DNA from: Bacteroidetes bacterium GWA2_32_17 | GTDB taxonomy: Bacteria > Bacteroidota > Bacteroidia > Bacteroidales > GWA2-32-17 | Reading direction: 5' to 3' | Length of the DNA: 64,000 nt | NCBI GenBank assembly: GCA_001769035.1 | Contig: MENF01000150.1 | Span: 10,848-74,847 of the forward strand | Shown: positions 1,132 to 53,960 of the stretch, in pieces | How the letters are laid out: each line of letters opens with the position of its first letter | How positions within the stretch are numbered: the first letter of the stretch is position 1 | Position numbers and translations under genes: made by a program | The notes under the pieces: generated by a model | The model's database searches: none | What the model was told of the DNA's origin: nothing | Seen by the model: the letters and a program-made list of their open reading frames with translations, nothing else

Positions 1132-3471
1132 ATGTTGATTTATAAAAATAAAAAAATATTTTTTTTATTGATTTTAATTTTAATTTCTTCGAATATATAT
1201 ACTCAAGATTTAAAAATTATTGACTCGTTAAATAAAGTTATAATCATTTCAAAAGATATTAAAACTAAAATAGATTGTTACAATTTAATTGCTAAAGAAT
1301 ATATAACTAATTCAGCTTTTGACAGTATAAATTTTTATGCTAAAAAAGCTCTTGATTTATCAAAACAAATTAATTATGATAAAGGCATTGGAACAAGTTA
1401 TTCTAATATAGCTGCAATAGAATACGATAAAGGAAATAACGATAAAGCTTTAGAGTTATATTCAATTGGATTAAGATATTTCAGAAAAGCAAATTTTGAT
1501 ATAGGAATAGCAAGAATTTATACTTCATTAGGTAATATTTATATTAATTCGGGTAATTATTCAAAAGCTCTTAATACTTACATCAACTCGCAGAAAATAA
1601 TTGACAAACTATTAGATAAAGATTCTTCTTCAATCAATTTAAACCAAACAAAAGCCAATAATTTAAATAATCTTGGAAATGTATATTTCTATTTGAATAA
1701 CTATGACGAAGTATTAATTTATTATTTTGAAGCTTTTACTCTTTATAAAAAAATAAATGATAAAGCTGATATGGCAAATGCATTAAATAATATAGGGTTA
1801 ATTTATCGTGTTAAGGGAGAAACAGAGAAGTCTATTGATTTTAGAATGAAAGCTTTAGAAATTTTTAAAGAATTAAATAACATTGAGGGATTAGCTTATT
1901 GCAATATGGGATTAGGTAACTTATATTATGAAAGCAATCAACATGACAAATCAATAAATTTTTTCAATCAGGCATTAAAATACTTTAGACAAATGGATTC
2001 CAAAAAAGGAATCATAATGATTTATGTTAATTTCAGCGAAATATTTGCTCAACAAAAGCTTTTCTCAAAATCAATTGCATATTTAGATACAAGTTTAAAA
2101 TTGTCATTTGAAATTGGTAGTAATGATTTAAGAAAAGATATTTATAAAACTTATTCTGAAATTTATAAAAACAAAATGAATTATAAGTTATCATTAGAAT
2201 ATCAAACACTATATATAAACCTAAAAGATAGTATTTTAAATAATGATAATCAAAAGATTATAGCAGACATTCAAACAAAATATGATACTGAAAAGAAAGA
2301 AAAACAAATATTATTATTTAAACAGGAAAAAATTATTCGTGAAGCCGATTTATTAAAAAAATCTAAAGAAGTTCAAAAACAAAAATTTATAATTTATACA
2401 TTTATTTTTGGATTTATTATAATTATAATATTTTCTACATTGTTATATAAACAATTTCATGAAAAGAAAAAAGCATATACTCAATTAGAAATTAAAAATT
2501 CTGAAATTCTGCAAAAAAATGAAGAAATTTCTACCCAACGCGATGAAATAGAAGCCCAACGCGATGAAATTACAACTCAACGCGATTTGGTAACAATTCA
2601 AAAAGAACACATCGAAGAAATCCATAAAGAAGTTACCGACAGCATTAATTATGCAAAACGAATACAGGAAGCTGTTTTGCCTGTGAGCGATTCATCAAGG
2701 TCAATACTTGGCGAACATTTTATTTTATTTAAACCAAAAGATATTGTTTCGGGTGACTTCTACTGGGCAACTCAAATAACAACAATGGGGCATGCTCCAT
2801 TAACAACAAGGGGGCATGCCCACTTGTTAATTGTTGCAGTTGCCGATTGCACTGGTCATGGTGTACCAGGTGCATTTATGAGTATGCTGGGAATTAGTTT
2901 TCTAAATGAAATTGTGCTGAAAGAAGAAGTCCGTAAAGCAAATCAAATATTAAATCATTTAAGAAAAGAAATTATCAATGCACTTCAGCAAAAGGGAATT
3001 AGCGGTGAACAGAAAGACGGAATGGATATTTCACTGCTCGTTGTTAATACCGAAACAAAAGAGTGCCAGTGGGCAGGAGCTAATAATCCGCTTTATATAG
3101 TAAGCAGTATGCAGTCAGCCTTCGGCAATGAAATGCACGAACTGCCAACTGCCACTGCCTCCTGCCAACTATATGAGTTAAAGGGCGACAAAATGCCCAT
3201 AGCCATTTACGAACGTATGGATGACTTTACAAACCACGAATTTACTCTGCAAAAAGGCGATTGTGTTTATTTGTTTAGCGATGGGTATGCCGACCAGTTT
3301 GGTGGACCAAAAAGCAAAAAATTTATGTACAAACAATTAAAAGAATTACTTTTAATAAATTGCCAGAGACCAATGCAAGAGCAAAAAGAAACATTAGATG
3401 TAGCTATCGGAAAATGGAAAGGTGAAAAAGAACAAATAGATGATATTACTGTATTAGGTATAAAAATTTGA
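1132..3471 (+). CDS. TPR-repeat membrane protein with C-terminal SpoIIE/PP2C-type serine phosphatase domain (paralogue 1)
   Basis: N-terminal hydrophobic leader, multiple TPR-like units (NNLGNVY, NNIGLIY, MGLGNLY) and a single TM (IIYTFIFGFIIIIIFSTLLY). A coiled coil TQRDEIEAQRDEITTQRD follows, then GDFYW...ADCTGHGVPGAFMS...DGMD...DGYADQFGG...DDITVLGIKI. Confidence 0.85.
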   Translation: MLIYKNKKIFFLLILILISSNIYTQDLKIIDSLNKVIIISKDIKTKIDCYNLIAKEYITNSAFDSINFYAKKALDLSKQINYDKGIGTSYSNIAAIEYDKGNNDKALELYSIGLRYFRKANFDIGIARIYTSLGNIYINSGNYSKALNTYINSQKIIDKLLDKDSSSINLNQTKANNLNNLGNVYFYLNNYDEVLIYYFEAFTLYKKINDKADMANALNNIGLIYRVKGETEKSIDFRMKALEIFKELNNIEGLAYCNMGLGNLYYESNQHDKSINFFNQALKYFRQMDSKKGIIMIYVNFSEIFAQQKLFSKSIAYLDTSLKLSFEIGSNDLRKDIYKTYSEIYKNKMNYKLSLEYQTLYINLKDSILNNDNQKIIADIQTKYDTEKKEKQILLFKQEKIIREADLLKKSKEVQKQKFIIYTFIFGFIIIIIFSTLLYKQFHEKKKAYTQLEIKNSEILQKNEEISTQRDEIEAQRDEITTQRDLVTIQKEHIEEIHKEVTDSINYAKRIQEAVLPVSDSSRSILGEHFILFKPKDIVSGDFYWATQITTMGHAPLTTRGHAHLLIVAVADCTGHGVPGAFMSMLGISFLNEIVLKEEVRKANQILNHLRKEIINALQQKGISGEQKDGMDISLLVVNTETKECQWAGANNPLYIVSSMQSAFGNEMHELPTATASCQLYELKGDKMPIAIYERMDDFTNHEFTLQKGDCVYLFSDGYADQFGGPKSKKFMYKQLKELLLINCQRPMQEQKETLDVAIGKWKGEKEQIDDITVLGIKI
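2779..2826 (+). repeat. In-frame 24-nt tandem duplication inside the phosphatase domain (TTMGHAPL / TTRGHAHL)
   Basis: aacaacaatggggcatgctccatt and aacaacaagggggcatgcccactt match at 20/24. Paralogue 2 carries a single unit at 5172-5205. Confidence 0.8.
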
Positions 3472-3486
3472 TTCTAATTAAGGCAG

Positions 3487-5862
3487 ATGCAAAAACTTAT
3501 ACTTACAATTTATTTTAGCTTATTATTCATAATTACTAATTCGTATTGCTTTTCGCAGAATACTGAAAAAAGTAGTAAGCAAAGTCGAACTATAGATTCA
3601 TTACTTAATATCCTTAAAACTACAAAAGAAGATACAATTAAAGTAAGAACTTTTAATAAACTTTTTTTAGCCTATGAATTTGAAGATAGTAAAAAGGCTA
3701 AAGGGTTTGTAGATATGGCACTAATCTTATCTAAAAAGATTAATTATAAAAATGGTCTGGCTGATTCTTATATTTATTTAGGTTATTACTTTGAAGATAT
3801 TTGTAATTATCCTGAAGCAATTGAGAATTATTCAGCTTCTTTGAAAATATGCGAAGCAATGGGAGATAAATTTGGTATTGCTATTTCATATAATAATATT
3901 GGTAATATGTATTCTAATCAAGGTAAATACCCTGAAGCATTAAAAAATTATTTTGCTAGTTTAAAGATAAATGAAGAATTAAAAGATCAAGAAGGAATAT
4001 CAAATTGTTATAATAATATTGGAATTATTTACAGAAAACAAAAAAATTATTCTGAGGCTTTAAAAAATTATCTTGCTTGTTTAAAAATAAAAAAAGAAAT
4101 GAGCGACAAGAAAGGCATTGCTAGTTTATATAATAATATTGGATTAATTTATTTTTATCAAAATAAATATTCTGAGGCATTAAACAATTATTATATTTCA
4201 TTAAGAATGTCAGAAGAATTAGAAGATGATAATCGTATTGGCAATGCATATAACAATATTGGAGGTGTATTTTATGAACAGAAAAAATATAATGATGCAT
4301 TAACAAATTACTTTGCTTCCTTAAAAATAGGAGAAAATATTCATGATAAAGTAAGCATTTCAAGCTCCTTGGTTAATATTGGTGATGTTTATACAACCCT
4401 AAAGAAATATAACGAAGCAAAAGATTACCTGATTAAAGCAAAAGAATTATCAGCAGAAATAGGATATATAGAAAATTTGAGAATTACTTATTATTGTTTA
4501 TCTACTCTTGATAGTTCTAAAGCAGATTATAAAGGAGCGTACGAGAATCATAAATTATATATATTATATCGTGATAGTTTAGATAATGAAGAAACCAGAA
4601 AAAAAACTATTCAAACTCAAATGACATATGAATTTGAGAAAAAAGAAGCTGTCGCTTTTGCTGAACATAAAAAAGAGTTAGAAAACCAAAAAGCCCTGGC
4701 TAAAGAAAAAAGCAGAAAACAGAACATTGTTATATTGTTTGTTGTTTCGGGTCTGTTGTTGGTATTAATTTTTGCAGGATATATTTTCCGTTCATTAAGA
4801 ATTACCAAAAAACAGAAGAAAACTATTGAGGAACAGAAGGTCGAAGTAGATATGAAAAACCTGCAACTTAATCAGCAAAACGAAGAAATAAGAACCCAAC
4901 GCGATGAAATAGAAGCCCAGCGAGATGAAATTACAACTCAACGCGATTTGGTAACAATTCAAAAAGAACATATCGAAGAAATTCATAAGGAGGTTACCGA
5001 CAGTATTAATTATGCAAAACGAATACAGGAAGCTGTTTTACCTGACCTCTCCCTAACCCTCTCCAAAGGAGAGGGGAAAAGCCCTTCCCTTTGGGGAGGG
5101 TTGGATGGGGCTTTTATACTTTTCAAACCAAAAGATATTGTGTCGGGCGATTTTTACTGGACAACTCAAATAACAACAATGGGGCATGCCCCCTTGTTAA
5201 TTGTTGCAGTTGCCGACTGTACCGGACACGGTGTTCCGGGTGCCTTTATGAGTATGCTTGGAATTAGTTTTCTAAATGAGATTGTACGAAAACAAGAAGT
5301 AACACAAGCTAACCATGTATTAAATGAAATTAGAAAAGAAGTAATTAACGCTTTACAACAAAAAGGTGTTAGTGGTGAACAAAAAGATGGAATGGACATT
5401 TCGTTGCTCGTTGTTAATACTGAAACAAATGAATGTCAGTGGGCTGGAGCTAATAATCCGCTTTATATAGTAAGCAGTAGCCAGTCAGCGGTAAGCAGTA
5501 TGCAGTCAGCCTTCGGCAATGAAATGCACGAACTGCAAACTGCCACTGCCTTCTGCCAACTATATGAGTTAAAGGGCGACAAAATGCCCATAGCCATTTA
5601 CGAACGTATGGATGACTTTACAAACCATGAATTTAAAATCTCAAAAGACGATTGTCTCTATCTCTTTAGCGATGGCTTTGCCGACCAGTTTGGTGGACCC
5701 AAAGGCAAAAAATTTATGTATAAACAATTTAAGGAAATTTTGCTCACAAACTCTCAAAAACCAATGCAAGAGCAGAAAGAAATTTTAGAAAAAGCTATAA
5801 ATGAATGGATTGGTGTTGGTGAACAAATAGATGATATTACTGTATTAGGCATTAAAATATAA
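3487..5862 (+). CDS. TPR-repeat membrane protein with C-terminal SpoIIE/PP2C-type serine phosphatase domain (paralogue 2)
   Basis: Same architecture as paralogue 1: about 8 TPR units with NNIG..Y, a TM IVILFVVSGLLLVLIFAGYIF, the QRDEI coiled coil, ADCTGHGVPGAFMS, DGFADQFGG and DDITVLGIKI. It starts 15 nt after paralogue 1. Confidence 0.85.
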   Translation: MQKLILTIYFSLLFIITNSYCFSQNTEKSSKQSRTIDSLLNILKTTKEDTIKVRTFNKLFLAYEFEDSKKAKGFVDMALILSKKINYKNGLADSYIYLGYYFEDICNYPEAIENYSASLKICEAMGDKFGIAISYNNIGNMYSNQGKYPEALKNYFASLKINEELKDQEGISNCYNNIGIIYRKQKNYSEALKNYLACLKIKKEMSDKKGIASLYNNIGLIYFYQNKYSEALNNYYISLRMSEELEDDNRIGNAYNNIGGVFYEQKKYNDALTNYFASLKIGENIHDKVSISSSLVNIGDVYTTLKKYNEAKDYLIKAKELSAEIGYIENLRITYYCLSTLDSSKADYKGAYENHKLYILYRDSLDNEETRKKTIQTQMTYEFEKKEAVAFAEHKKELENQKALAKEKSRKQNIVILFVVSGLLLVLIFAGYIFRSLRITKKQKKTIEEQKVEVDMKNLQLNQQNEEIRTQRDEIEAQRDEITTQRDLVTIQKEHIEEIHKEVTDSINYAKRIQEAVLPDLSLTLSKGEGKSPSLWGGLDGAFILFKPKDIVSGDFYWTTQITTMGHAPLLIVAVADCTGHGVPGAFMSMLGISFLNEIVRKQEVTQANHVLNEIRKEVINALQQKGVSGEQKDGMDISLLVVNTETNECQWAGANNPLYIVSSSQSAVSSMQSAFGNEMHELQTATAFCQLYELKGDKMPIAIYERMDDFTNHEFKISKDDCLYLFSDGFADQFGGPKGKKFMYKQFKEILLTNSQKPMQEQKEILEKAINEWIGVGEQIDDITVLGIKI
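5045..5112 (+). repeat. GC-rich double-hairpin element lying in frame inside paralogue 2
   Basis: CCCTCTCC-aaa-GGAGAGGG (5057-5075, perfect 8-bp stem) and CCCTTCCC-ttt-GGGGAGGG (5082-5100, one mismatch). It encodes DLSLTLSKGEGKSPSLWGGLDGA, which is absent from paralogues 1 and 3. Confidence 0.8.
5470..5511 (+). repeat. In-frame 21-nt tandem duplication (gtaagcagtagccagtcagcg / gtaagcagtatgcagtcagcc)
   Basis: 18/21 identity. Paralogue 1 has one copy at about 3100-3120. Confidence 0.8.
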
Positions 5863-5871
5863 CTCATTAAA

Positions 5872-6735
5872 TTATGGAATTATATACTCATAATTATATC
5901 GGTCGAAGAGTTTTAGAATCGAAATTGGGTCATCAGTTTGCAAAATGTCAATTTTCTTTTTTATTGCTATTACGTTAGAATAATAATTGTTAGGAGTATA
6001 TGACATAATGTATAATCCTTTTTTGTGGGCGCTATCTGCATCAATTTCGAAATTTTCCATTTGTGTGCAAATTCCAAAAAACGAATTATTTATACAAGTG
6101 TCAATGTTTGCTTGGCTTACAACACCAGATAAAAAAAGTTTGTTTGTAAATCCTAACTGTCTGGCTTTTCTTAAATATTGTGCATTGCCTTCAATAAAAA
6201 CATTATCGCTCACATTGTATTTATCACAAATTCTTTTTATTGCTCTTAAAAGTTGATTTTGATACTCTTCGGGGTCTGCTACTAAATAGTCAATTTTACT
6301 GTCGAACGAAAAATATAAATTTGCAAGATTGTGTATATTGTTAAAAACATCATCAACTGAGCTAATAAAAATATTATTCTCTAAAGCATAATATTTGCAT
6401 TGTTTTATTTCTGCCCATGTAGATTCGTAAATTCTTCCATTGCAGGTAGTTGTTGAATTAAGTTCACCATCGTGAAAAAAAACTAAAATGCTATCTTTTG
6501 TTATTTGAACATCAACTTCGCAACCATCGGCACCAATTCCAATAGCTGGCACAATTGATTCATAAGTATTGCCTGGTTTTTTATAATACGAGCCCATACC
6601 TCTATGTCCAAGTATCATTATTTTGCTTCCAAAATAAGTATCGTCGGAGTTGTTTCTTTTTTCGCAACTAACAATAAATAATATTGAGAACATTGTTATG
6701 AAAAAAGCAAATGTTTTTTTAATATTAGAATGCAT
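5872..6735 (-). CDS. Glycerophosphodiester phosphodiesterase family lipoprotein
   Basis: Lipobox-like FIVSCEK. GDPD signature ILGHRGMG...GNTYESI...GADGCEVDVQITKDSILVFFHDGELNSTT. Confidence 0.8.
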   Translation of the reverse strand: MHSNIKKTFAFFITMFSILFIVSCEKRNNSDDTYFGSKIMILGHRGMGSYYKKPGNTYESIVPAIGIGADGCEVDVQITKDSILVFFHDGELNSTTTCNGRIYESTWAEIKQCKYYALENNIFISSVDDVFNNIHNLANLYFSFDSKIDYLVADPEEYQNQLLRAIKRICDKYNVSDNVFIEGNAQYLRKARQLGFTNKLFLSGVVSQANIDTCINNSFFGICTQMENFEIDADSAHKKGLYIMSYTPNNYYSNVIAIKKKIDILQTDDPISILKLFDRYNYEYIIP

Positions 6736-7444
6736 ATCCGATTTTTAAATTAGAAACCCACCAGAAGTTACAATTAGTACTTGTCCATTGTGCATCTAAT
6801 GACTTGATTGAAATTCGCCCGTTTTCAGACACATAATTAAATACTTTAGTTAAAAAAGATGTTTTTATTTCTAATGAAAAATGTTTTCCAAATTGATTTT
6901 CATATCCCAAACTTAATCCAACGCCTAATTTATTTTGATTATAACTATCGGAGTATCTGTCATTTGTTTGGGAATTATAATAAGTTAACTCTTTTTTGTA
7001 ATAACCAAAATCTAATACTATACTCGAAAAAAGTTTTTCGTTAGGATGATTTTTGAATGTATAAAAGTAATAATTATAACTTGGAATAATATGAAATCCA
7101 ATTATTAAAACATCCTGTTCAATTGAATACAAACCTTGTTGTTGATTAAAAAAATCGTAATATTTTATAAATTTATATTTATCGTAAAGTCCTGCATCAA
7201 TATAACAACTTACAGATGATTTTTTTAAAAATTCTTGTTCGTATTCACATCCAACTCTTATTTGAACACGGTTATCAAAAAAATCGTTATATAGTGGCAA
7301 TAAATCAATTTTTATGGATTTTTTATATAGCAAACTATCGGATTTTTCTTGTGAAAACGATTGTAAAATGAAACCCGAAATAATTGCTATCATTATTAAA
7401 TATTTCGCAAAAAATAAATTGTAAATATTTTGAATTTTTATCAT
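6725..7444 (-). CDS. Hypothetical outer-membrane beta-barrel-like protein
   Basis: Hydrophobic leader and a Y/F/G/N-rich alternating pattern. The C-terminus ...NLKIGYAF ends in Phe, as in OM barrels. An 11-nt overlap with the GDPD gene suggests an operon. No family recognised. Confidence 0.4.
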   Translation of the reverse strand: MIKIQNIYNLFFAKYLIMIAIISGFILQSFSQEKSDSLLYKKSIKIDLLPLYNDFFDNRVQIRVGCEYEQEFLKKSSVSCYIDAGLYDKYKFIKYYDFFNQQQGLYSIEQDVLIIGFHIIPSYNYYFYTFKNHPNEKLFSSIVLDFGYYKKELTYYNSQTNDRYSDSYNQNKLGVGLSLGYENQFGKHFSLEIKTSFLTKVFNYVSENGRISIKSLDAQWTSTNCNFWWVSNLKIGYAF

Positions 7445-7659
7445 TGTTAGTTTAGTGTAAATTGTTATTGTTAATTCAATAATTTAATTCAAAAATAAAC
7501 AATAACAGATAATAAAACAAAGTGATGAAATTATTTTAATCGTCATTTTTCGTTGCCTCAAGATGACAATTGATACTCGAAACGGATTAATATTTGTGCA
7601 AAGTCATTTAGTCTTTCTCAAATACAATGCTGATTAGGTTCTCGAAGTATGACTATAAA

Positions 7660-9447
7660 TTAATCTAACTTAAGCACTGCTAAAAATGCCGATTGTGGTA
7701 CTTCTACCGAGCCAATTTGTCGCATTCTTTTCTTTCCCTTTTTCTGTTTTTCGAGTAATTTGCGTTTACGCGAAATGTCACCACCATAACATTTTGCAAT
7801 AACGTCTTTTCTTAAAGGTTTAACAGTTTCGCGGGCAATAATTTTAGTACCAATAGCAGCTTGTATGGCAACTTCATATTGCTGACGAGGTATAAGTTCT
7901 TTTAATTTTTCGCACATTCTTCGTCCAAACGGATAGGCGTTATCGAAATGTATTAAAGTAGAAAGTGCATCAACCTGTTCGCTATTTAAAAGTATGTCGA
8001 GTTTTACTAATTTTGAAAGTTTGTAAACTGTTGGGTGATAATCGAATGAGGCGTAACCCTTAGAAATACTTTTAAGTTTATCATAAAAATCGAAAACAAT
8101 TTCGGCAAGTGGCATTTCGAAAGTAAGCTCAACTCTGTTAGTTGTTAAATAATTTTGACTTTGTAAAATACCGCGTTTATCAATACACAAATTCATTATT
8201 GCACCAACATATTCGGTTTTTGTAATTACCTGAGCTTTTATGTATGGTTCTTCAATGTAATCAATATAAGTAGGAGCCGGCAAACCCGAAGGATTGTGCA
8301 CATCAATAGTTTCGCCTTTTGTTGTAACAACTTTATATGAAACATTCGGTACGGTAGTTATAACATCCATGTCAAACTCACGATAAAGTCTTTCTTGCAC
8401 AATTTCCATGTGAAGCAACCCCAGAAAACCACCACGAAAACCAAAGCCAAGTGCAGCCGATGATTCGGGAATAAATGTTAACGAAGCATCATTTAACTGT
8501 AATTTTTCGAGCGATGCACGTAATTCTTCATATTCATCTGCATCAACAGGATAAATACCTGCAAAAACCATAGGTTTTACATTCTCGAAACCAGCTACAA
8601 CACTTGAGCAGGGGTTTTCAAAATGAGTAATTGTATCGCCAACCTTTACTTCTTTGGCATTTTTAATTCCCGAAATAATGTAGCCAACATCGCCGGTACT
8701 TAAAGTATCTTTTGGTTTAAGTTTTAATTTTAATACTCCTATTTCATCGGCATGATAATCATTTGCAGAATGAACAAATTTAACATGTTCACCTGTTTTA
8801 AGTGTTCCATTAATTATTCTGAAATATGCAATAATTCCTCTAAATGAATTAAAAACAGAATCAAAAATCAATGCTTGTAATGGACCATCTGGATTTCCTT
8901 TAGGAGCAGGAATTCGTTCAATAATTGCTTCTAAAACATTTTGCACACCATCCCCTGTTCTTGCACTTACTTCTAAAATTTCTTCACGTTTGCAACCTAA
9001 CAAATCAACAATCTGGTCTTTAACTTCATCGGGCATTGCCGAAGCCATATCCATTTTATTAAGAACAGGAATTACTTCAAGATTATGGTCAATTGCCTGA
9101 TATAAATTTGAAATAGTTTGTGCCTGAATTCCTTGTGTGGCATCAACAACTAATAAAGCACCTTCGCATGAAGCAATTGCACGTGAAACCTCGTAACTAA
9201 AATCAACGTGTCCAGGAGTGTCAATTAAATTAAGAATATATTTTTTGCCTTCATATTCGTAATTCATCTGAATAGCATGACTTTTTATTGTAATTCCGCG
9301 TTCACGTTCAAGTTCCATGTCATCTAAAACCTGAGCTTGCAGGTCTTTTCCTGTAACAGTTCCGGTAATTTCTAACAAACGGTCGGCAAGAGTACTTTTT
9401 CCATGGTCAATATGTGCTATAATGCAGAAATTACGAATATGTTCCAT
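7660..9447 (-). CDS. lepA: Translation elongation factor 4 (LepA)
   Basis: [34 protein letters not shown] and NKMD GTPase motifs. 595 aa with the characteristic LepA C-terminal region (...[21 protein letters not shown]...). Confidence 0.97.
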
Positions 9448-24083: not shown

Positions 24084-24213
24084 TAGTGTTTGTCCATAAT
24101 GTCCGATTTCTACGTTATTCTCATTTTTAAAATCAGTCATTTACTACAGTAAACTCCTGATATTTAAAAATTTCGAATGCCTTGAACTCGAACATTATGA
24201 ATCAGACACTGAC
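24084..24213. mobile_element. MITE-like palindromic element, copy 1
   Basis: About 130 bp. It aligns over its whole length with the reverse complement of 38191-38318. The terminal arms tagtgtttgtccataatgtccga... and ...gaacattatgaatcagacactgac are imperfect inverted repeats. Confidence 0.75.
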
Positions 24214-24275
24214 TTTACAGACAGACACTATTTAGTAGTATTAATAAATTTTTACTGGGAAACAGTGATTTTAAA

Positions 24276-27167: not shown

Positions 27168-29282
27168 TTGAAATATTTTAAATTAATTATTATATTATTT
27201 TTATTTCTTAATTGCTTTGATACCGATGCACAGCAAATTAGACTTGATTCTTTATTAAAAATTATTAAAACAGAAAAAAACGATTCTGTAAAAGTAAATT
27301 GTTTGTTATCAATTGCTGATTATTATTCAAACGAAACACCCGATAAAGCTATTTATTATGCTAATAAAGCTAAAAACACAGCTATCTATTTAAAAAATCG
27401 TATTCTATATGCACGTTGTTTAATGGAAATTGGTTGGTACTATTATCAATTAGGAAACTATGCTCAAACCCTAAAAAATTATTTTGAAGCTTTAAAAGTT
27501 TATAAACCAAGCGAATTAAAATATACTTCAGCAGTTCTAACTAATATTGGAGACGTTTTTTTAGAGCAAAAAGATTATGAGAAAGCAAAAGAATATTATT
27601 TAAAAGCTCTTAAAATTGACGAAGAAACGCTAAATAAAAATGGGATAGCTGTAATAAATGGTAACATAGGTATAGTATATGAAGAACAAAAAGATTACGA
27701 AAATGCATTAGAATACTTTTACAAATCTTTAACTTTAAACAAAGAGTTATTAAATGAAGCATTGGAAAGTAAAAATTCTCATGAAATTAATGAAAACAAG
27801 AAAGAAATAGCGATTAAATTGGGAAATATTGGAAATTTATATGCAAGTAAAATCGAGAACGATAAATTAACTGTCAACGAAAAAAACGAACTATTAAACA
27901 AAGCATTAGATTATCTTTTGGAAGGTTTAAAAATTGATTATGAGTTAAACAGAAAAAACGGAATTGCTACAAAACTTGGCAATATTGGTATATTATACAA
28001 ATATACAATGAATTATAAACTTGCCGAAAATTATTTACAAAAAGCTCTTTTAGTTTCTGATAGCATTAAAGCTATTAAGTTAATGATTGAATGGCATAAA
28101 AATTTAAGTCAGATATATGAAAAAACAAATCAAACTGAAAAATCATATAAACATTATAAAAAACATATTGAATTAAGGGATAGTATTTATAATTCGGATA
28201 ATACCAAAAACAGTTCACAAGTAGAATTAAGTTATGAATTCGATAAAAAAATGGCATTGAAAAAAGCCGAAAAAGAAAAAAAAGATGCGATTGCTAAAGC
28301 CGAGAAAAGAAAGCAACAAATAGTTATTTGGGCGGTTGGAATCGGACTTATATTAGTGCTAATTTTTACAACCTTTATACTACGTTCTCTTAAGTTAACA
28401 AAAAAACAAAAAAAAATAATTGAAGAGCAAAAACAAATAGTAGAAGAAAAGCAAAATGAAATAATTGACAGTCTAAATTATGCTAAACACTTACAAAATG
28501 CAATTTTACCTACTGCAATTAAGTGGCAAAAACATTTACCAAATAGTTTTATTTTATACAAACCAAAAGATATTGTTTCAGGTGATTTTTACTGGCTTAC
28601 TCAAATAACAACAATGGAACCCCCATTGTTAATTTTTGCTGTTGCCGATTGTACCGGACATGGAGTTCCAGGTGCAATGGTTAGCGTTGTATGCTGTAAT
28701 GCACTTAACAGAGTTGTAAAGGAATTTAATATTACTGAACCTGACAAAATATTAGACAAAACAAAAGAGCTTGTTGTTGAGCATTTTACAAAGGGTAGTG
28801 AAGACGTAAAAGATGGAATGGACATATCGCTTTGTTCATTATATTACGAAACTGATAAAATTATTCTTAAATGGGCTGGAGCAAATAATCCATTATGGGT
28901 TATTTCTTCTGTCATTCTGAACGATAGTGAAGAATCTAACTCGAAAATAGATGCTTCGACTCATAACGATAACTATATGCTAACTGAATTTAAACCCGAC
29001 AAGCATCCTGTTGGAAAAACCGATAACAACGTGCCATTTACAACCCATAATATTGAACTTCAAAAAAATGATTGTATTTATATCTTTAGCGATGGTTATC
29101 AGGATCAGTTCGGTGGAGAACAAGGCAAGAAATTTAAAACTTCGCAAATGAAAGAACTTTTTTTATCGGTACAAAACAAAACTATGAACGAACAGAAAAA
29201 GATTATTTCATATAAATTTGATAACTGGAAAGAAAATTTAGAACAAGTTGATGATATTTGTATAATTGGGGTTAAGGTTTAA
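27168..29282 (+). CDS. TPR-repeat membrane protein with C-terminal SpoIIE/PP2C-type serine phosphatase domain (paralogue 3)
   Basis: TTG start, leader, TPR units, TM IVIWAVGIGLILVLIFTTFIL, GDFYW...ADCTGHGVPGAMVS...DGMD...DGYQDQFGG...DDICIIGVKV. Confidence 0.85.
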   Translation: MKYFKLIIILFLFLNCFDTDAQQIRLDSLLKIIKTEKNDSVKVNCLLSIADYYSNETPDKAIYYANKAKNTAIYLKNRILYARCLMEIGWYYYQLGNYAQTLKNYFEALKVYKPSELKYTSAVLTNIGDVFLEQKDYEKAKEYYLKALKIDEETLNKNGIAVINGNIGIVYEEQKDYENALEYFYKSLTLNKELLNEALESKNSHEINENKKEIAIKLGNIGNLYASKIENDKLTVNEKNELLNKALDYLLEGLKIDYELNRKNGIATKLGNIGILYKYTMNYKLAENYLQKALLVSDSIKAIKLMIEWHKNLSQIYEKTNQTEKSYKHYKKHIELRDSIYNSDNTKNSSQVELSYEFDKKMALKKAEKEKKDAIAKAEKRKQQIVIWAVGIGLILVLIFTTFILRSLKLTKKQKKIIEEQKQIVEEKQNEIIDSLNYAKHLQNAILPTAIKWQKHLPNSFILYKPKDIVSGDFYWLTQITTMEPPLLIFAVADCTGHGVPGAMVSVVCCNALNRVVKEFNITEPDKILDKTKELVVEHFTKGSEDVKDGMDISLCSLYYETDKIILKWAGANNPLWVISSVILNDSEESNSKIDASTHNDNYMLTEFKPDKHPVGKTDNNVPFTTHNIELQKNDCIYIFSDGYQDQFGGEQGKKFKTSQMKELFLSVQNKTMNEQKKIISYKFDNWKENLEQVDDICIIGVKV
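28911..28975 (+). repeat. Copy of the gtcattctgaacg...agatgyttcgact dispersed element, in frame inside paralogue 3
   Basis: gtcattctgaacgatagtgaagaatcta matches 34842-34870 (gtcattctgaacgattagtgaagaatcta) apart from a 1-nt indel. tagatgcttcgact matches tagatgtttcgact. It is codon-aligned and encodes VILNDSEESNSKIDASTHNDNY. Confidence 0.75.
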
Positions 29283-30158: not shown

Positions 30159-30212
30159 TGAAAAATATAAAAAATTGAGTATCAATAAACTAAAAAAGAT
30201 AAACAGATGAAA
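30159..30212 (+). repeat. 54-nt direct repeat, copy 1 (includes a duplicated RBS region and ATGAAA)
   Basis: tgaaaaatataaaaaattgagtatcaataaactaaaaaagataaacagatgaaa matches 30423-30476 at 51/54. Confidence 0.85.
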
Positions 30213-30422: not shown

Positions 30423-30476
30423 TGAAAAATATAATAAATTGAGTATCAATAAACTAAAAAATATAAACAAATGAAA
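30423..30476 (+). repeat. 54-nt direct repeat, copy 2 (contains the real start of 30471-31154)
   Basis: tgaaaaatataataaattgagtatcaataaactaaaaaatataaacaaatgaaa. Confidence 0.85.
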
Positions 30477-32303: not shown

Positions 32304-34739
32304 TTAAAATATTTGAGGATATTTTTTAGGATTGTAATTGTGCATCATGTTATAAATACCTTCAAAAACATCTTCGGCATTTGGATTCGAAAAATAATCG
32401 CCATCGGTAGCATAAGCGGGGCGGTGTTCTTGAGCGGTTATTGTAATTGGTTCAGAATCTAAGTATTTATAAGCTCCTTGTTCTTCCAAAACTTTTTGGA
32501 GCATAAATGCAGTTGCTCCACCCGGAACATCTTCGTCGAAAAACACAATTTTATTTGTTTTTTTTACTGATTCGAGAATTGAATTATTTACATCAAATGG
32601 TAATAGCGATTGAACATCAATAAGTTCAACATTAATTTTAAATTCTTTTAATTGTTCTACCGCTTCTTGTGCAATTCTTACACATGAACCATAAGTAATT
32701 AATGTTATATCATTACCCACATTTAATATTTCCGGTACTCCTATTGGAATTTTATACTCACCAATATTATCGGGACGTTTTTCTTTTAAACGATAACCGT
32801 TTAATGGCTCTATAACCAAAGCTGCATCTTCAGCTTCGAACAGAGTGTTATAAAACCCTGCAGCTTGAGTCATGTTTCTTGGAACAAGCACATATACGCC
32901 TCTAATAGAATTTATTACCATGCTTAATGGTGAGCCGGAATGCCAAATTCCTTCCAACCTGTGACCACGAGTTGAAATTATTACAGGAGCTTTTTGTCCG
33001 CCGGCAGTTCTGTAATGCAGCGAAGCCAAATCGTCGCTTAAAGTTTGTAGTGCATATAATAAATAATCGAAATACTGAATTTCAACTAATGGACGTAAGC
33101 CCCTTAATGCCAAACCAATACCCTGACCTAAAATTGTTGTTTCTCTAATTCCTGTATCAGAAATTCTAAGTTCGCCATATTTTTTTTGAAGTCCTTCAAA
33201 CGACTGGTTAACGCCGCCAATATGTCCAACATCTTCGCCAAAAGCAACTAACAAATGGTATTTCTGAAATAAATAATCCCAATTATCACGCAAAACTTCT
33301 CTGCCGTTAACAATTGTGGAGTTTTGGGTAAATATTGGAGGAACACTTTTAATATTTAAAGCTGATTTCTCGGTCTGCACATATAAATGACTGTTATATC
33401 TTTTGTGAGCATCGTCGTAATTGCGTTTTAGCCAATATTGCAAATCACTTTGTAATTGTTTTCTAATATCGCAATCGAAGCAAACGTGACGAAGAATTTT
33501 TTTTGCAGCACTAAAAATATCTTTCCTGATTGGATATTGAATTTTTTTTAAATTTTCGGTAATAATTCCAACTTTATCAACATGTTCCCGCTTACAAACG
33601 CAAGAACGGTTATCAATAATTTTAACAAGTTCATTGCGTTCGCGTTTTATTGGTTCATTAAAATTATTCCATGCACTTTGTTTTGCACTTTTTACATCAT
33701 TCAATGCTTTTTCGTTAATCGAATTTAATTCTTCTTCGCTTGATATGTGATTTTCTATTAACCAATTACGAAATCTTGCAATTGGGTCAAATTCGTTCTC
33801 AAAAGTTAATCGTTCGGGCGATTTGTATCGTTCATGTGAACCTGAAGTTGAGTGTCCTAAAGGTTGTGTCATTTCTTCGATATGAAAAACAACCGGAATA
33901 TGTTCTTTTCTGCATTTCTCAACGCCTTCGGAAAAAACTTTTACCATTTCGGCATAATCCCAACCTTTAACTTTGTAAATAAAAATTCCGCCATTGGAAT
34001 CTTTTTCAAATCCACTTAACAATTGCGAAATACTTTGTTTTGTAGTTTGATATTTTTTGGGAACCGAAATTCCGTAACCATCATCAAAAATAAATAATGC
34101 CATAGGAACTTTTAAAACTCCAACTGCATTAATTGTTTCCCAAAAATGTCCTTCAGATGTGCTTGCATCGCCAATAGTACCAAAAGCAACTTCATTTCCA
34201 TTATCGGAAAAATTCTTATAAATTGTTAAGTCTTTATTTTCTCTATATAGTTTTGAAGCCCATGCCAATCCTGTTAAACGAGGCATTTGTCCTGCTGTTG
34301 GTGATAAATCGGCTGCTGAGTTTTTTTGTGTCATTAAATTTTTCCACGAACCATCGGGATTAACATTGGCTGTGCTAAAATGGTTATTAAAAGAACGTCC
34401 GCTGTTATGAGGATTATTTTTAATATCCGTGTCGCCATAAAGTTGAGCAAAAAATTGTTCTGCTGTAAGTAAACCTGAAGCAAGCATAAAAGTTTGGTCG
34501 CGGTAATAACCCGAACGCCAATCGCCATTTTTAAAATTTTTAGCCATTACAACTTGGGCTAATTCTTTACCATCTCCAAAAATTCCGAATTTTGCTTTTC
34601 CGGTAAGAACTTCTTTACGACCAATAACGCTTAAATGCCGACTTAACGAGGAAATATAAAAGTCGTTTAAAACGTCTTTCTTAAAATCGTCGAATGTCAT
34701 TTGTTTATCGGTATCTAAAGATATATAATTAGAATTCAT
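32304..34739 (-). CDS. Fused alpha/beta E1 component of a TPP-dependent 2-oxoacid dehydrogenase
   Basis: The N-terminal half has the E1-alpha TPP motif IGDASTSEGHFWETINAVGVLKVPMALFIFDDGYGISV. The C-terminal half has the E1-beta motif FGEDVGHIGGVNQSFEGLQKKYGELRISDTGIRE. 811 aa. Confidence 0.85.
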   Translation of the reverse strand: MNSNYISLDTDKQMTFDDFKKDVLNDFYISSLSRHLSVIGRKEVLTGKAKFGIFGDGKELAQVVMAKNFKNGDWRSGYYRDQTFMLASGLLTAEQFFAQLYGDTDIKNNPHNSGRSFNNHFSTANVNPDGSWKNLMTQKNSAADLSPTAGQMPRLTGLAWASKLYRENKDLTIYKNFSDNGNEVAFGTIGDASTSEGHFWETINAVGVLKVPMALFIFDDGYGISVPKKYQTTKQSISQLLSGFEKDSNGGIFIYKVKGWDYAEMVKVFSEGVEKCRKEHIPVVFHIEEMTQPLGHSTSGSHERYKSPERLTFENEFDPIARFRNWLIENHISSEEELNSINEKALNDVKSAKQSAWNNFNEPIKRERNELVKIIDNRSCVCKREHVDKVGIITENLKKIQYPIRKDIFSAAKKILRHVCFDCDIRKQLQSDLQYWLKRNYDDAHKRYNSHLYVQTEKSALNIKSVPPIFTQNSTIVNGREVLRDNWDYLFQKYHLLVAFGEDVGHIGGVNQSFEGLQKKYGELRISDTGIRETTILGQGIGLALRGLRPLVEIQYFDYLLYALQTLSDDLASLHYRTAGGQKAPVIISTRGHRLEGIWHSGSPLSMVINSIRGVYVLVPRNMTQAAGFYNTLFEAEDAALVIEPLNGYRLKEKRPDNIGEYKIPIGVPEILNVGNDITLITYGSCVRIAQEAVEQLKEFKINVELIDVQSLLPFDVNNSILESVKKTNKIVFFDEDVPGGATAFMLQKVLEEQGAYKYLDSEPITITAQEHRPAYATDGDYFSNPNAEDVFEGIYNMMHNYNPKKYPQIF

Positions 34740-34817: not shown

Positions 34818-34935
34818 CTAAAAACTCATTTAAATCTCAATGTCATTCTGAACGATTAGTGAAGAATCTATATTTATTTTTGAATATTAGATGTTTCGAC
34901 TACGCTCAACATGATAATGTGTATTGAGTTTTTAG
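34818..34935. mobile_element. Intergenic MITE-like palindromic element (gtcattctgaacg family)
   Basis: Outer inverted repeat CTAAAAACTCA (34818-34828) / TGAGTTTTTAG (34925-34935). Inner arms are tgtcattctgaacg / cgctcaacatgataa. The 60-aa track ORF 34745-34927 is derived from this repeat. Confidence 0.6.
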
Positions 34936-35048
34936 AGGTACCCAAATTGTAATTTAAGTTTAATATTTGAAATATTTTATATACAAATTTACAAAGAATT
35001 ATTCTAAATAGCGTATCTTTGTATAATTAATTTTAATATACCAAATAT

Positions 35049-38162: not shown

Positions 38163-38190
38163 ATTTAAATAATTAGTATCTATAAATAAA

Positions 38191-38318
38191 GTCAGTGTTT
38201 GATTCAGAATGTCCGAGTTCAAGGCTTTCGAAGTATTAAAATCAGAAGTTTACTAATGTAAATGCCTGATTTTTAATACGAGAATAACGTAGAATTCGGA
38301 CATTATGGACAAACACTA
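38191..38318. mobile_element. MITE-like palindromic element, copy 2, filling the sufC-sufD spacer
   Basis: Its reverse complement reads tagtgtttgtccataatgtccgaattctacgttattctcg...gaactcggacattctgaatcaaacactgac, which matches 24084-24213. Confidence 0.75.
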
Positions 38319-38319
38319 G

Positions 38320-39072
38320 TTATTCGGCAAATTCTTTTTTAATCCAATCATAACCTTTTTCTTCGAGTTCAAATGCGAGTTCTTTGCCAGCTGTTTTAAC
38401 AATTTGTCCGTTATATAAAACATGTATAATATCAGGAATAATATAATCTAATAATCGTTGATAATGTGTTATAACAATTGTTGCAGAATCCGGACGTTTT
38501 AATTTATTTACACCATTTGCAACAATTCTTAAAGCATCAATGTCCAGACCGGAATCAGTTTCATCTAAAATTGCAAGTTTTGGTTCTAACATTGCCATCT
38601 GAAAAATTTCATTTTTCTTTTTTTCTCCACCCGAAAAGCCCTCATTTACTGAACGATTAGTGAGCTGAGAATCAATTTCGACAAGTTCTTTTTTCTCACG
38701 CATTAGTTTTAAAAAGTCAGATGAGCTTAATAGTGGTAAATTCTGGTATTTTCGTTTTTCATTTACAGCAGTTTTCATAAAGTTTACCATGCTTACGCCA
38801 GGTATTTCGATTGGATATTGAAAACCTAAAAATATTCCCATTCTGGCTCTGTCTTCGGGTAGCAACTCAAGCAAATTTTTACCTTCAAAAATCACTTCGC
38901 CTGAAGTAACTTCAAAAAGTTCGCGACCAGCAAGAACAGCAGCAAGAGTACTTTTACCCGAACCATTTGGTCCCATAATAGCATGCACTTCGCCAGCTTT
39001 TACTTCGAGATTTATTCCCTTTAATATTGGTTTCCCGTTAATTGATACTTTTAATTTTTTTATACTTAACAT
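38320..39072 (-). CDS. sufC: Fe-S cluster assembly ATPase SufC
   Basis: Walker A GPNGSGKST, signature FSGGEKKKNEI, Walker B LAILDETDSGLD. 250 aa. Confidence 0.95.
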   Translation of the reverse strand: MLSIKKLKVSINGKPILKGINLEVKAGEVHAIMGPNGSGKSTLAAVLAGRELFEVTSGEVIFEGKNLLELLPEDRARMGIFLGFQYPIEIPGVSMVNFMKTAVNEKRKYQNLPLLSSSDFLKLMREKKELVEIDSQLTNRSVNEGFSGGEKKKNEIFQMAMLEPKLAILDETDSGLDIDALRIVANGVNKLKRPDSATIVITHYQRLLDYIIPDIIHVLYNGQIVKTAGKELAFELEEKGYDWIKKEFAE

Positions 39073-39100
39073 TTTTTATTTTGTTTATTATTTTACGTTT

Positions 39101-39220
39101 ACTTACATAGTCATACATAGTCATACATAGTCATACATAGTCATACATAGTCATACATAGTCATACATAGTCATACATAGTCACACATAGTCACACATAG
39201 TCACACATAGTCATACAATC
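39101..39220. repeat. 10-bp tandem repeat, about 12 units (tcatacatag x7, tcacacatag x3, degenerate end units)
   Basis: Read directly: 39111-39180 holds seven exact units and 39181-39210 holds three units with a T-to-C change. It lies between the sufC start (39072) and the sufB stop (39421). Confidence 0.95.
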
Positions 39221-39420
39221 GTTTATTTTTTATTTCCATTATTTGCAATTTTTTCAACCAATTTCTATTTATTTCTGTTTTTAAAGTTTATAATTTTTGG
39301 TTAATGATTTTCAATCTATTTCGATTTATTTCTGCTTTTTTAATTTCTATTTATTTCAATCTATTTCTGTTTTTACTGACTACTGATTACAGTTTTACGT
39401 TTTATAAATCTTCAACTTTT

Positions 39421-53806: not shown

Positions 53807-53960
53807 AATAATGTCGTACCTACGGTACTTTAGAATCATATTTAGTTCAATTGTTACCATAATGTCATCCCTCTGGGATTTTATTAAGCTCCGTTGGAGC
53901 GGTATTATGGTAAAAGGAAAAATAATATTTGGCTAAAGTCCTGTAGGGACGACATTATTT
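53807..53960. repeat. Nested imperfect palindrome (outer arms aataatgtcgtacctacggtac / gtcctgtagggacgacattatt; inner arms ccataatgtcatccc / gcggtattatgg)
   Basis: Read directly from the sequence. It is followed by atccgatagttatcggat and by the hairpin gcaaagaatttcac...gtgaaaatcctttgc (about 54019-54057). Confidence 0.6.

Follow-up and report, generated by a model that had tools for sequence, protein, structure and literature searches.

An in-frame insert akin to (T)GTC-tagged REP doublets at a β-hairpin tip of a TPR-PP2C phosphatase from a groundwater Bacteroidota

We describe a palindromic repeat that lies in frame within the catalytic domain of a phosphatase gene in a 64,000-nucleotide (nt) stretch of DNA from Bacteroidetes bacterium GWA2_32_17 (hereafter, the window). 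The gene encodes a membrane-anchored protein with tetratricopeptide repeats (TPR) and a C-terminal PP2C domain, and its 63-nt insert matches a palindromic element located between two other genes of the same window. The finding is real, and it is an event of a type already known from Rickettsia and other bacteria, the in-frame intragenic insertion of repeats that resemble repetitive extragenic palindromes (REPs) or Rickettsia palindromic elements (RPEs). With good confidence, we read the insert as the remnant of a REP doublet that was put into the TPR-PP2C gene at a hairpin turn and that is translated as a flexible, most likely neutral or nearly neutral, surface extension. The in-frame colonisation of proteins by palindromic repeats, usually deemed a Rickettsia curiosity, is thereby seen in a free-living groundwater Bacteroidota.

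The insert occupies exactly 63 nt (28911-28973, forward strand; Table 1) of the open reading frame (ORF) 27168-29282, where it is read as VILNDSEESNSKIDASTHNDN followed by Y, and it is flanked by the conserved blocks GANNPLW and KPDKHPVG. Its first 28 nt (28911-28938, gtcattctgaacgatagtgaagaatcta) are identical to intergenic positions 34842-34870 at 28 of 29 positions, the sole difference being one additional T in the intergenic copy, and a second block (28948-28961, tagatgcttcgact) is identical to 34888-34901 (tagatgtttcgact) at 13 of 14, with the order of the two blocks conserved. The chance expectation of the 28-mer with up to 3 mismatches was 0.00 in 100 shuffles of the window. In a global alignment of 28911-28973 with 34842-34916, 55 of the 61 aligned columns are identical and the gaps fall chiefly in an AT-rich spacer. 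An earlier reading of this DNA, made from its letters and hereafter called the sequence-only reading, had proposed that both blocks match the intergenic palindrome and that the copy is codon-aligned, with its frame intact, between NNPLW and KPDKHPVG; the alignments and the ORF translation bear out both proposals. The match holds with slightly different limits, since the coding segment had been given as 28911-28975 instead of 28911-28973 and the intergenic element, given as 34818-34935, runs from about 34818 to 34936.

Because the insert is 63 nt long and stop-free in the frame of the gene, the gene is intact. Across these 63 nt the gene's own frame (frame 1) is the only stop-free frame on the coding strand, and the extra T of the intergenic copy results in a TAG in the corresponding frame there. 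The inserted peptide is polar and acidic (5 D/E, 1 K), and the peptides spanning its junctions read ...WVISSVILNDSEESNSK and IDASTHNDNYMLTEFKPDK. The two units of the coding doublet differ in their state of preservation. The 5′ unit is still a perfect member of the repeat family described below and gives the top match in the window to R1, a covariance model of the unit. Decay is evident in the 3′ unit (28948..28973), whose own small hairpin is broken and which falls below detection by R1. The coding copy is also without the outer inverted repeat seen in the intergenic copy.

In the intergenic element the arms of this outer 11-bp inverted repeat lie at 34818-34828 and 34926-34936. Folding of the element predicts a long hairpin of -14.8 kcal/mol, with z-scores of -2.65 (plus strand) and -3.22 (minus strand), and the element is located between divergent genes, an E1 dehydrogenase (32304-34739, reverse strand) and a small ORF followed by an MscS-like channel (from 35049, forward strand). 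The compensated stem type of its 3′ unit, ATGTT/AACAT, is found elsewhere in the repeat family. Judged as a MITE (miniature inverted-repeat transposable element), the intergenic copy has the outer inverted repeat, with no evident target-site duplication and no parent insertion sequence (IS) identified. In the 64-kb window, mismatch searches, a repeat finder and R1 with its filters off detected the 5′ unit of the coding copy and both units of the intergenic element, and no other copies.

Table 1. Location of the host gene, the repeat copies and the related loops and units; positions are those of the window unless another locus is named.
Feature	Location	Strand	Remarks
Host gene, 704 aa	27168..29282	+	Hydrophobic N-terminal leader, TPR repeats, one transmembrane helix, C-terminal PP2C domain
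In-frame insert, probable REP doublet remnant	28911..28973	+	55/61 identity to intergenic core; absent from orthologue L002; model residues 178-198
Intact 5′ hairpin unit of coding doublet	28911..28936	+	GTC-ATTCT-GA-AC-GATA-GT-GA-AGAAT-C; top match in window to R1, 41.3 bits, E 3e-6
Decayed 3′ unit of coding doublet	28948..28973	+	tagatgcttcgact vs 34888-34901, 13/14
Intergenic palindromic element	34818..34936	+	Outer 11-bp inverted repeat, two inverted hairpin units, AT-rich spacer
5′ unit of intergenic doublet	34842..34868	+	Stem ATTCT/AGAAT; R1 38.0 bits, E 1.5e-5
3′ unit of intergenic doublet, inverted	34890..34915	-	Stem changed with compensation to ATGTT/AACAT; R1 17.5 bits, E 0.18
β-hairpin loop of paralogue 1 (ORF 1132-3471)	3097..3180	+	Unrelated insert SSMQSAFGNEMHELPTATASCQ; DNA hairpin z -1.45, not significant
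β-hairpin loop of paralogue 2 (ORF 3487-5862)	5467..5571	+	Longer palindromic insert; DNA hairpin -28.7 kcal/mol, z -3.55
Alanyl-tRNA synthetase (AlaRS) with single unit	L250 ORF, oriented positions 6347-9013; L254 1188-2576	minus strand of locus (L250)	Reads VILNDSEES

The unit of the repeat family is 25-27 nt long and consists of GTC, a 5-bp stem, GA, a 2-bp stem, a loop of 3-5 nt, a 2-bp stem, GA, a 5-bp stem and C; copies usually comprise two units, inverted, with a spacer of variable length. Both stems of the unit covary. Among 128 distinct partner units, namely those left unconstrained by the search pattern, the outer stems include ATTCT/AGAAT (33 units), ATCCT/AGGAT (28), ACCCT/AGGGT (10), ATGCT/AGCAT (5), ATGTT/AACAT (4) and ATTCC/GGAAT (3), and 96 cells are doubly compensated. 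In an alignment of 67 units, for which the outer stem of some seeds was pre-filtered for pairing and the inner stem was unfiltered, pairing holds in 99.4% of cells and both sides have changed at 6 of 7 pairs; the covariation score was reached by none of 500 shuffles, and sliding the partners destroyed the signal. The GTC is invariant (67/67), as is the first stem pair, A-T (67/67), and the second pair is T-A in 58 of the 67 units and C-G in 8. The bases flanking the unit are also biased, with T at -1 in 88% and at +1 in 89% of 340 distinct contexts and C as the next base in 42%. Both window copies read tGTC (28910-28913 and 34841-34844), and we refer to the unit as (T)GTC-tagged. The element is absent from described RNA families: there was no Rfam match in the window at the gathering score, and when the intergenic element and a canonical copy were scanned permissively against Rfam, only sub-threshold small nucleolar RNA and microRNA noise appeared. 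A literature search with the sequence strings of the element retrieved only irrelevant primer or sequence matches.

The family is widely distributed. Viral contigs contain 119 stretches that match the pattern GTCATTCTGARCG-N1-5-GYGAAGAATC, and a narrower unit pattern occurs in at least 120 stretches among contigs from one genome per species, spanning many phyla. The matches listed include Bacteroidota, Chloroflexota, Planctomycetota, Bacillota, Spirochaetota, Ignavibacteriota, Nitrospirota, Patescibacteria/Saccharibacteria, Armatimonadota, Proteobacteria and others, with the isolates Pedobacter and Mucilaginibacter among the Bacteroidota listed. The 28-mer of the coding copy recurs, exactly or nearly so, in 55 metagenome stretches with GC contents of 28 to 52% and unrelated flanks. 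Copies lie within long open frames in 16/152, 3/146 and 4/59 cases (2 to 11%), the remainder being outside.

Where units do fall within genes, they may be read in frame in unrelated enzymes. Full-length AlaRS of two different low-GC organisms contains one (T)GTC unit in frame (...SND-VILNDSEES-KEQNK...), as does a class I/II, BioF-like aminotransferase (L288); a UvrD-like helicase (L269, VILSETKDINKLDSSLIVQNDKK) contains an entire in-frame doublet, and several phage ORFs likewise contain units in frame. Peptides such as VILNDSEES, VILSEAKNL, HSERSEES or ...SSLRSAQND within annotated proteins should be read as repeat-derived.

As a separate observation on the family, two loci (L280 and L281; e.g. 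L281 5779-6040) and many Ga0209510 contigs contain a 117-nt element built around a (T)GTC doublet, with outer inverted repeats ctgaaaaagt...actttttcag. It forms tandem arrays with a period of 117 nt and is scattered over many contigs of one metagenome, which suggests a high-copy composite, MITE-like, form of the (T)GTC family.

Among described repeats, the closest counterpart belongs to the CGTC-tagged REPs, one of two superfamilies, the other being GTAG-tagged, that were recognised by Di Nocera, De Gregorio and Rocco (2013; PMC3733652). According to these authors, CGTC REPs, in which the tag is often TGTC, have an 8-9 bp stem that opens with two A/T pairs, a loop of 4-5 nt and a CCA tail; they are dispersed, mainly as inverted dimers, in five phyla including Bacteroidetes, with no dedicated transposase known (PMC3733652). 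The superfamily comprises four named families and includes Neisseria dRS3 and Rickettsia RPE-4 and RPE-6, and genes for UvrD and tRNA synthetases are among those with intragenic copies, which are often dimers encoding 20-30 aa, the peptide of the R. conorii CGTC-1 dimer reading SFLRKQES...DSRFRGND (PMC3733652). The unit described here shares with CGTC/TGTC REPs an unpaired (C/T)GTC tag, a stem opening with A-T and then T-A, a loop of 3-5 nt, an inverted-dimer and mostly intergenic organisation, occurrence in several phyla, the lack of a dedicated transposase beside the copies, and in-frame copies in UvrD and tRNA synthetase genes. It differs in that its stem, which also spans 9 positions, is not continuous for 8-9 bp but is broken by the conserved GA/GA internal loop (5 bp + 2 + 2 bp), and in that its tail is C-T-(C) and not CCA. 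Its range is far wider than the five phyla, extending to Patescibacteria within the candidate phyla radiation (CPR), Chloroflexota, Bacillota, Planctomycetota, Nitrospirota and phage contigs. The hosts listed in PMC3733652 do not include a PP2C phosphatase; the only "phosphatase" of its supplement, isocitrate dehydrogenase kinase/phosphatase, carries a GTAG-3 element. Judging from these sequence features, the unit would best fit the CGTC/TGTC-tagged superfamily as a relative and not as one of its four named families, and we file it as related because of the misfit of its tail and interrupted stem. The assignment lends substance to the analogy with Rickettsia drawn in the sequence-only reading, RPE-4 and RPE-6 being assigned to the same superfamily by Di Nocera et al.

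The analogy has limits. RPEs (Ogata et al. 2000; summary in PMC10969869) are palindromic repeats that lie in frame within conserved proteins, at sites compatible with the fold, and add surface peptides. The insert shares with them an in-frame palindromic repeat in a conserved protein at a fold-compatible position, with an additional, predicted surface peptide. It differs from the classical RPE-1 type, which is about 100-150 bp long, Rickettsia-specific and codes for a conserved peptide, since the coding doublet measures 63 nt (63-75 nt core), is made of 25-nt units and belongs to a free-living groundwater Bacteroidota; and it is one case in 64 kb rather than one of dozens per genome. With a Bacteroidota metagenome-assembled genome as host, the element falls outside the RPE class, and the resemblance is limited to the short RPE-4/RPE-6 (CGTC) class. 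A further comparison is offered by REP doublets forming hairpins (REPINs) and bacterial interspersed mosaic elements (BIMEs), which are mobilised by REP-associated tyrosine transposases (RAYTs, or TnpA-REP), Y1 HUH enzymes (Bertels and Rainey 2011; Quentin et al. 2018, PMC6006769). The element shares with these doublets an inverted pair of hairpins able to form a larger hairpin, a short conserved motif 5′ of the foot, covarying stems and a non-autonomous nature. However, its tag is (T)GTC, not GTAG or GTGG, no RAYT-like ORF recurs near its copies, and its unit sequence is common across phyla, whereas GTAG REPs are usually species- or genus-specific. The (T)GTC tag excludes identity with a GTAG REP.

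The host protein is a PPM/PP2C phosphatase, classed as SpoIIE in Pfam, as judged from profile score, predicted fold and Asp motifs. Pfam identifies TPR families and SpoIIE (PF07228) at 53.4 bits, for a cut-off of 25. Residues 405-704 were modelled with AlphaFold2 using 71 homologues, and the model reached a mean predicted local distance difference test (pLDDT) of 91.2, its top match among solved structures in Foldseek being the PP2C domain of SiaA from Pseudomonas aeruginosa (6k4e; E 2.8e-18, template-modelling score 0.88), followed by RssB, SpoIIE (5ucg), 3f79 and other PPM phosphatases. Four Asp residues, D69, D90, D238 and D291 in model numbering, are invariant in the 71 homologues and would form the predicted metal-binding motifs. 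The Pfam and structure matches together therefore point to a TPR-sensor PP2C of the SiaA/RsbU/SpoIIE group, not to the sporulation protein itself. The host shares with that group the fold and the conserved Asp and Gly motifs; it differs in its N-terminal sensor, a putative periplasmic or extracytoplasmic TPR array in place of the SiaA or SpoIIE regulatory regions, and in the 21-residue repeat-derived extension of the β-hairpin that follows GANNPLW. An identical protein is deposited as OFX32766.1 from Bacteroidetes bacterium GWA2_32_17 and occurs on contigs of Rifle groundwater metagenomes, and adjacent genes carry sorting domains of the type IX secretion system, consistent with Bacteroidota.

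Within the modelled domain, the strands LWVISS (172-177) and YMLTEF (199-204), of 6 residues each, form a β-hairpin, and the insert (178-198) is predicted as coil at its tip, with pLDDT of about 56-75 against values mostly above 90 elsewhere in the domain. Residues at the hairpin base are invariant or nearly so (N170, K208, P210, G212). The tip would thus lie about six strand residues away and be directed away from the conserved face, and, because of this topology, the phosphatase is expected to tolerate the insert. The model in this way places the insert in a surface loop, as the sequence-only reading had proposed to check, and its suggestion that the protein tolerates a repeat-derived peptide is supported by the coil at the hairpin tip, by an orthologue with a plain loop and by unrelated inserts at the same tip, both described below. 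Of 99 parsed homologues, 60 have 10 residues between the anchors (e.g. IIRNGELIEY), against 31 in the host protein, so that the statement of the sequence-only reading that relatives have only a short turn here is accurate for that majority; it fails for both window paralogues and for many other sequences, which carry other inserts.

From these data we regard the following course of events as the most likely. A (T)GTC-tagged REP doublet would have inserted exactly at the β-hairpin turn of the membrane-anchored TPR-PP2C gene, perhaps through a trans-acting enzyme that recognises single-strand hairpins, by analogy with REP and IS200-type systems. Persistence would have been open only to an in-frame, stop-free copy at a structurally permissive site. 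Such a copy would be translated as a 21-residue acidic, polar and probably flexible stretch that lengthens the hairpin tip, most likely a neutral or nearly neutral passenger, and its 3′ unit would have decayed through coding constraints and drift.

Comparison with related loci gives the insert a history. Two loci, L001 and L002, are syntenic with the window across a WD40 gene (on the opposite strand), the phosphatase gene and an SH3_3 gene. The orthologue at L002 has a plain 10-residue loop, IVRNNKIIEY, without repeat DNA. The orthologue at L001, 64% identical to the host protein, has a diverged copy, gtcattttaaacgatagtgaagaatcta, followed by a longer, different second half; its 5′ unit scores 27.9 bits with R1, has altered stem and GA positions and no longer folds. 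The window and L001 agree in the first 9 inserted residues and in the preceding ISS, and differ almost throughout the second half of the insert. Their codons are identical at 8 of the 9 positions of the 5′ unit (11 of 12 with ISS), against a background of 62% at conserved residues (p ~0.09 and ~0.03, respectively), a hint that the 5′ unit may be under constraint or of more recent origin. At strain level, 4 more independent assemblies, which come from different samples, have the identical gene, and each of the 13 informative sequences in the 90% cluster retains the insert, the only polymorphism being one A/V change, which shows fixation within the species. The orthologue comparison envisaged in the sequence-only reading thus yields one relative without the insert, one with a diverged copy and a full set of close relatives with it.

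Further out, the sequences point to a 10-residue loop as the ancestral (basal) state of the TPR-PP2C family. A more distant syntenic orthologue, P0005, has a 39-aa loop in which no repeat or hairpin is recognisable, and for that reason it speaks neither for nor against an ancestral insert. The loop of P0072 is recognisably related (SNSEQSDESKTLDTSS) and appears to carry a related copy of the (T)GTC doublet at this turn.

Several points weigh against the reading of the insert as the remnant of a REP doublet inserted at this turn and carried as a neutral surface extension. The most substantial concerns its descent. The flanking genes group as ((window, L002), L001), with WD40 identities of 89% for window and L002, 72% for window and L001 and 73% for the remaining pair, and SH3_3 identities of 80% for window and L002 and 72% for window and L001; yet the insert is common to the window and L001 and missing from L002, and the PP2C tree and the flanking-gene identities give conflicting signals on gain versus loss. 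In addition, the N-terminal TPR part of the host gene (27168-28440) is only 58-61% identical to both orthologues, which are 76% identical to each other in this part, a divergence that suggests accelerated evolution or recombination in the host gene. The two tandem TPR-PP2C paralogues of L001 (3008-5260 and 5350-7437) have PP2C domains that are 98.5% identical and N-termini that are 36% identical, and in those of L246 (10001-12046 and 12184-14346) the loop DNA is identical and the N-terminal TPR regions are very different; from these patterns, gene conversion or domain swapping is active in the family. These sequences allow several histories: one gain after which L002 lost or replaced its loop, two gains, gene conversion, or a transfer of the PP2C segment.

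The remaining points concern the element and its product. The window holds a single intergenic copy; hence the description of the repeat as dispersed, made in the sequence-only reading, fails within these 64 kb and rests on the wide distribution of the family elsewhere, where it holds. The nearest-neighbour energies of the unit hairpin and of the hairpin of the coding copy are no better than those of shuffles, and since energy fails to separate units from shuffles, the structural case for the unit hairpin is its covariation. No transposase-like cluster was found among 1313 ORFs within 1.5 kb of copies at about 290 loci, where only phage structural proteins recur, in a scan that covered ORFs near copies rather than whole genomes and that a distant single-copy RAYT would escape. 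Finally, the separation of tip and active site is deduced from topology alone, and production of the insert peptide by the cell is a presumption.

The foremost alternative holds that the repeat-derived peptide, especially SSVILNDSEES, has been recruited as a docking or regulatory segment or as a Ser/Thr-rich phospho-site and is held by selection. The identity of the first 9 inserted residues and ISS in the window and L001, despite a diverged second half, would fit such recruitment, as would fixation in all 13 informative strain-level sequences with one A/V polymorphism. However, the closest syntenic orthologue, L002, does without the insert, the segment is a low-confidence coil in the model, unrelated sequences at the same tip in other paralogues indicate near-universal tolerance there, and VILNDSEES also occurs in unrelated enzymes, so that its conservation reflects the repeat and not the host protein. 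We consider such recruitment unlikely, though worth keeping in view.

We give slightly less credence to a constraint at the level of nucleic acid, whereby the 5′ unit would be kept as a DNA or RNA hairpin serving as substrate or binding site of a cognate enzyme, as a target of gene conversion or as an mRNA element. It draws on the top family score of the coding 5′ unit in the window (41.3 bits), on the exact match of the 28-mer to the motif of the 55 unrelated metagenome stretches, and on the codons shared with L001, which include the rare codons gtc and aac. Against this, the codon statistics are weak, the L001 unit has changed stem and GA positions and does not fold, the 3′ unit has decayed in both lineages, and recent conversion or independent insertion would fit the same data.

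That the insert is instead ancestral coding sequence of the phosphatase clade, which either seeded the intergenic element or resembles it by chance, is very improbable. Distant relatives with long loops, such as P0005 and P0072, might be taken to favour it, but the unit occurs in phyla and phages without this gene family, mostly outside long ORFs and with a covarying hairpin of its own, the basal loop of the family has 10 residues and the chance expectation is 0. Because copies lie mostly outside long frames and in organisms without TPR-PP2C genes, the gene did not seed the repeat; the distribution of the repeat family effectively refutes this explanation, which the sequence-only reading had itself named as the case that would overturn its claim. 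An assembly artefact joining two loci through a shared repeat merits next to no credence, for although short repeats can cause chimeric joins in metagenome assemblies, both flanks continue one PP2C domain in correct strand register, and the identity of the locus in four other independent assemblies together with the retention of the insert in 13 of 13 cluster members excludes it.

The reading as a REP-doublet remnant at a tolerant turn is set in a wider context by other inserts at the same position. Two tandem paralogues in the window (Table 1) both carry SSMQSAFGNEMHEL[PQ]TATA[SF]CQ at exactly the same tip, and a duplication lengthens that of paralogue 2. Inserts of at least 8 aa occur at the main tip junction in 17 of 71 sequences, with 1 more at each of two adjacent junctions and at most 2 at other junctions of the catalytic domain; since this sample is enriched for long loops, the counts are fair only when one loop is set against another. 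Length variation of the catalytic domain in the TPR-PP2C family occurs predominantly at the hairpin tip. Tip DNA is palindromic, with unrelated sequences, in P0004 (z -5.6), P0048 (z -4.5), an L246 paralogue (z -3.7), P0068 (z -3.6) and P0106 (z -2.95). The tips of P0106 and P0068 contain a (T)GTC unit plus G-rich hairpins, the unit of P0106 being in the opposite orientation, and those of P0004 and paralogue 2 contain palindromes of the CAGTC/GACTG type. These data suggest recurrent colonisation of one permissive turn by palindromic DNA.

Taken together, the tip may be a recurrent landing site, reached by at least five unrelated palindromes, and the (T)GTC unit may be one family that spans phyla, CPR and phages and decorates enzymes in frame; to the two propositions jointly we assign a little under an even chance. 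If both are true, the lengthening of protein hairpins by hairpin repeats would be a general and ongoing process extending well beyond Rickettsia. The locus constitutes a natural series at one structural position, from a plain 10-residue loop through an intact unit and a decayed unit to unrelated palindromes, which can be used to study the neutrality of inserts and the origin of new surface loops.

The window contains other repeats. A sequence of about 150 nt is present in two inverted copies 14 kb apart (24084-24234, forward; 38170-38318, reverse) that are 82-88% identical, the second lying between an ABC ATPase (sufC-like) gene and SufBD; it forms one long hairpin of 45 predicted pairs, 3 of which are compensated between the copies, has no Rfam match and may be another MITE-like or structured element. 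A tandem array at 39074-39237, intergenic and upstream of the gene at 38320-39072, comprises about 12-16 copies of the 10-nt unit TACATAGTCA, with TACATAGTCAC variants later in the array. An intergenic palindrome at 53807-53959, with 36-nt arms that are 81% complementary and 81 nt apart, contains gtcgtacctacggtac and gtcctgtagggacgac and represents a repeat type distinct from the (T)GTC element. Upstream of a DUF3108-like gene, a 54-nt direct repeat (30159-30212 and 30423-30476) occurs in two copies that are 94% identical and 264 nt apart, with short AGATTGA-type repeats between them.

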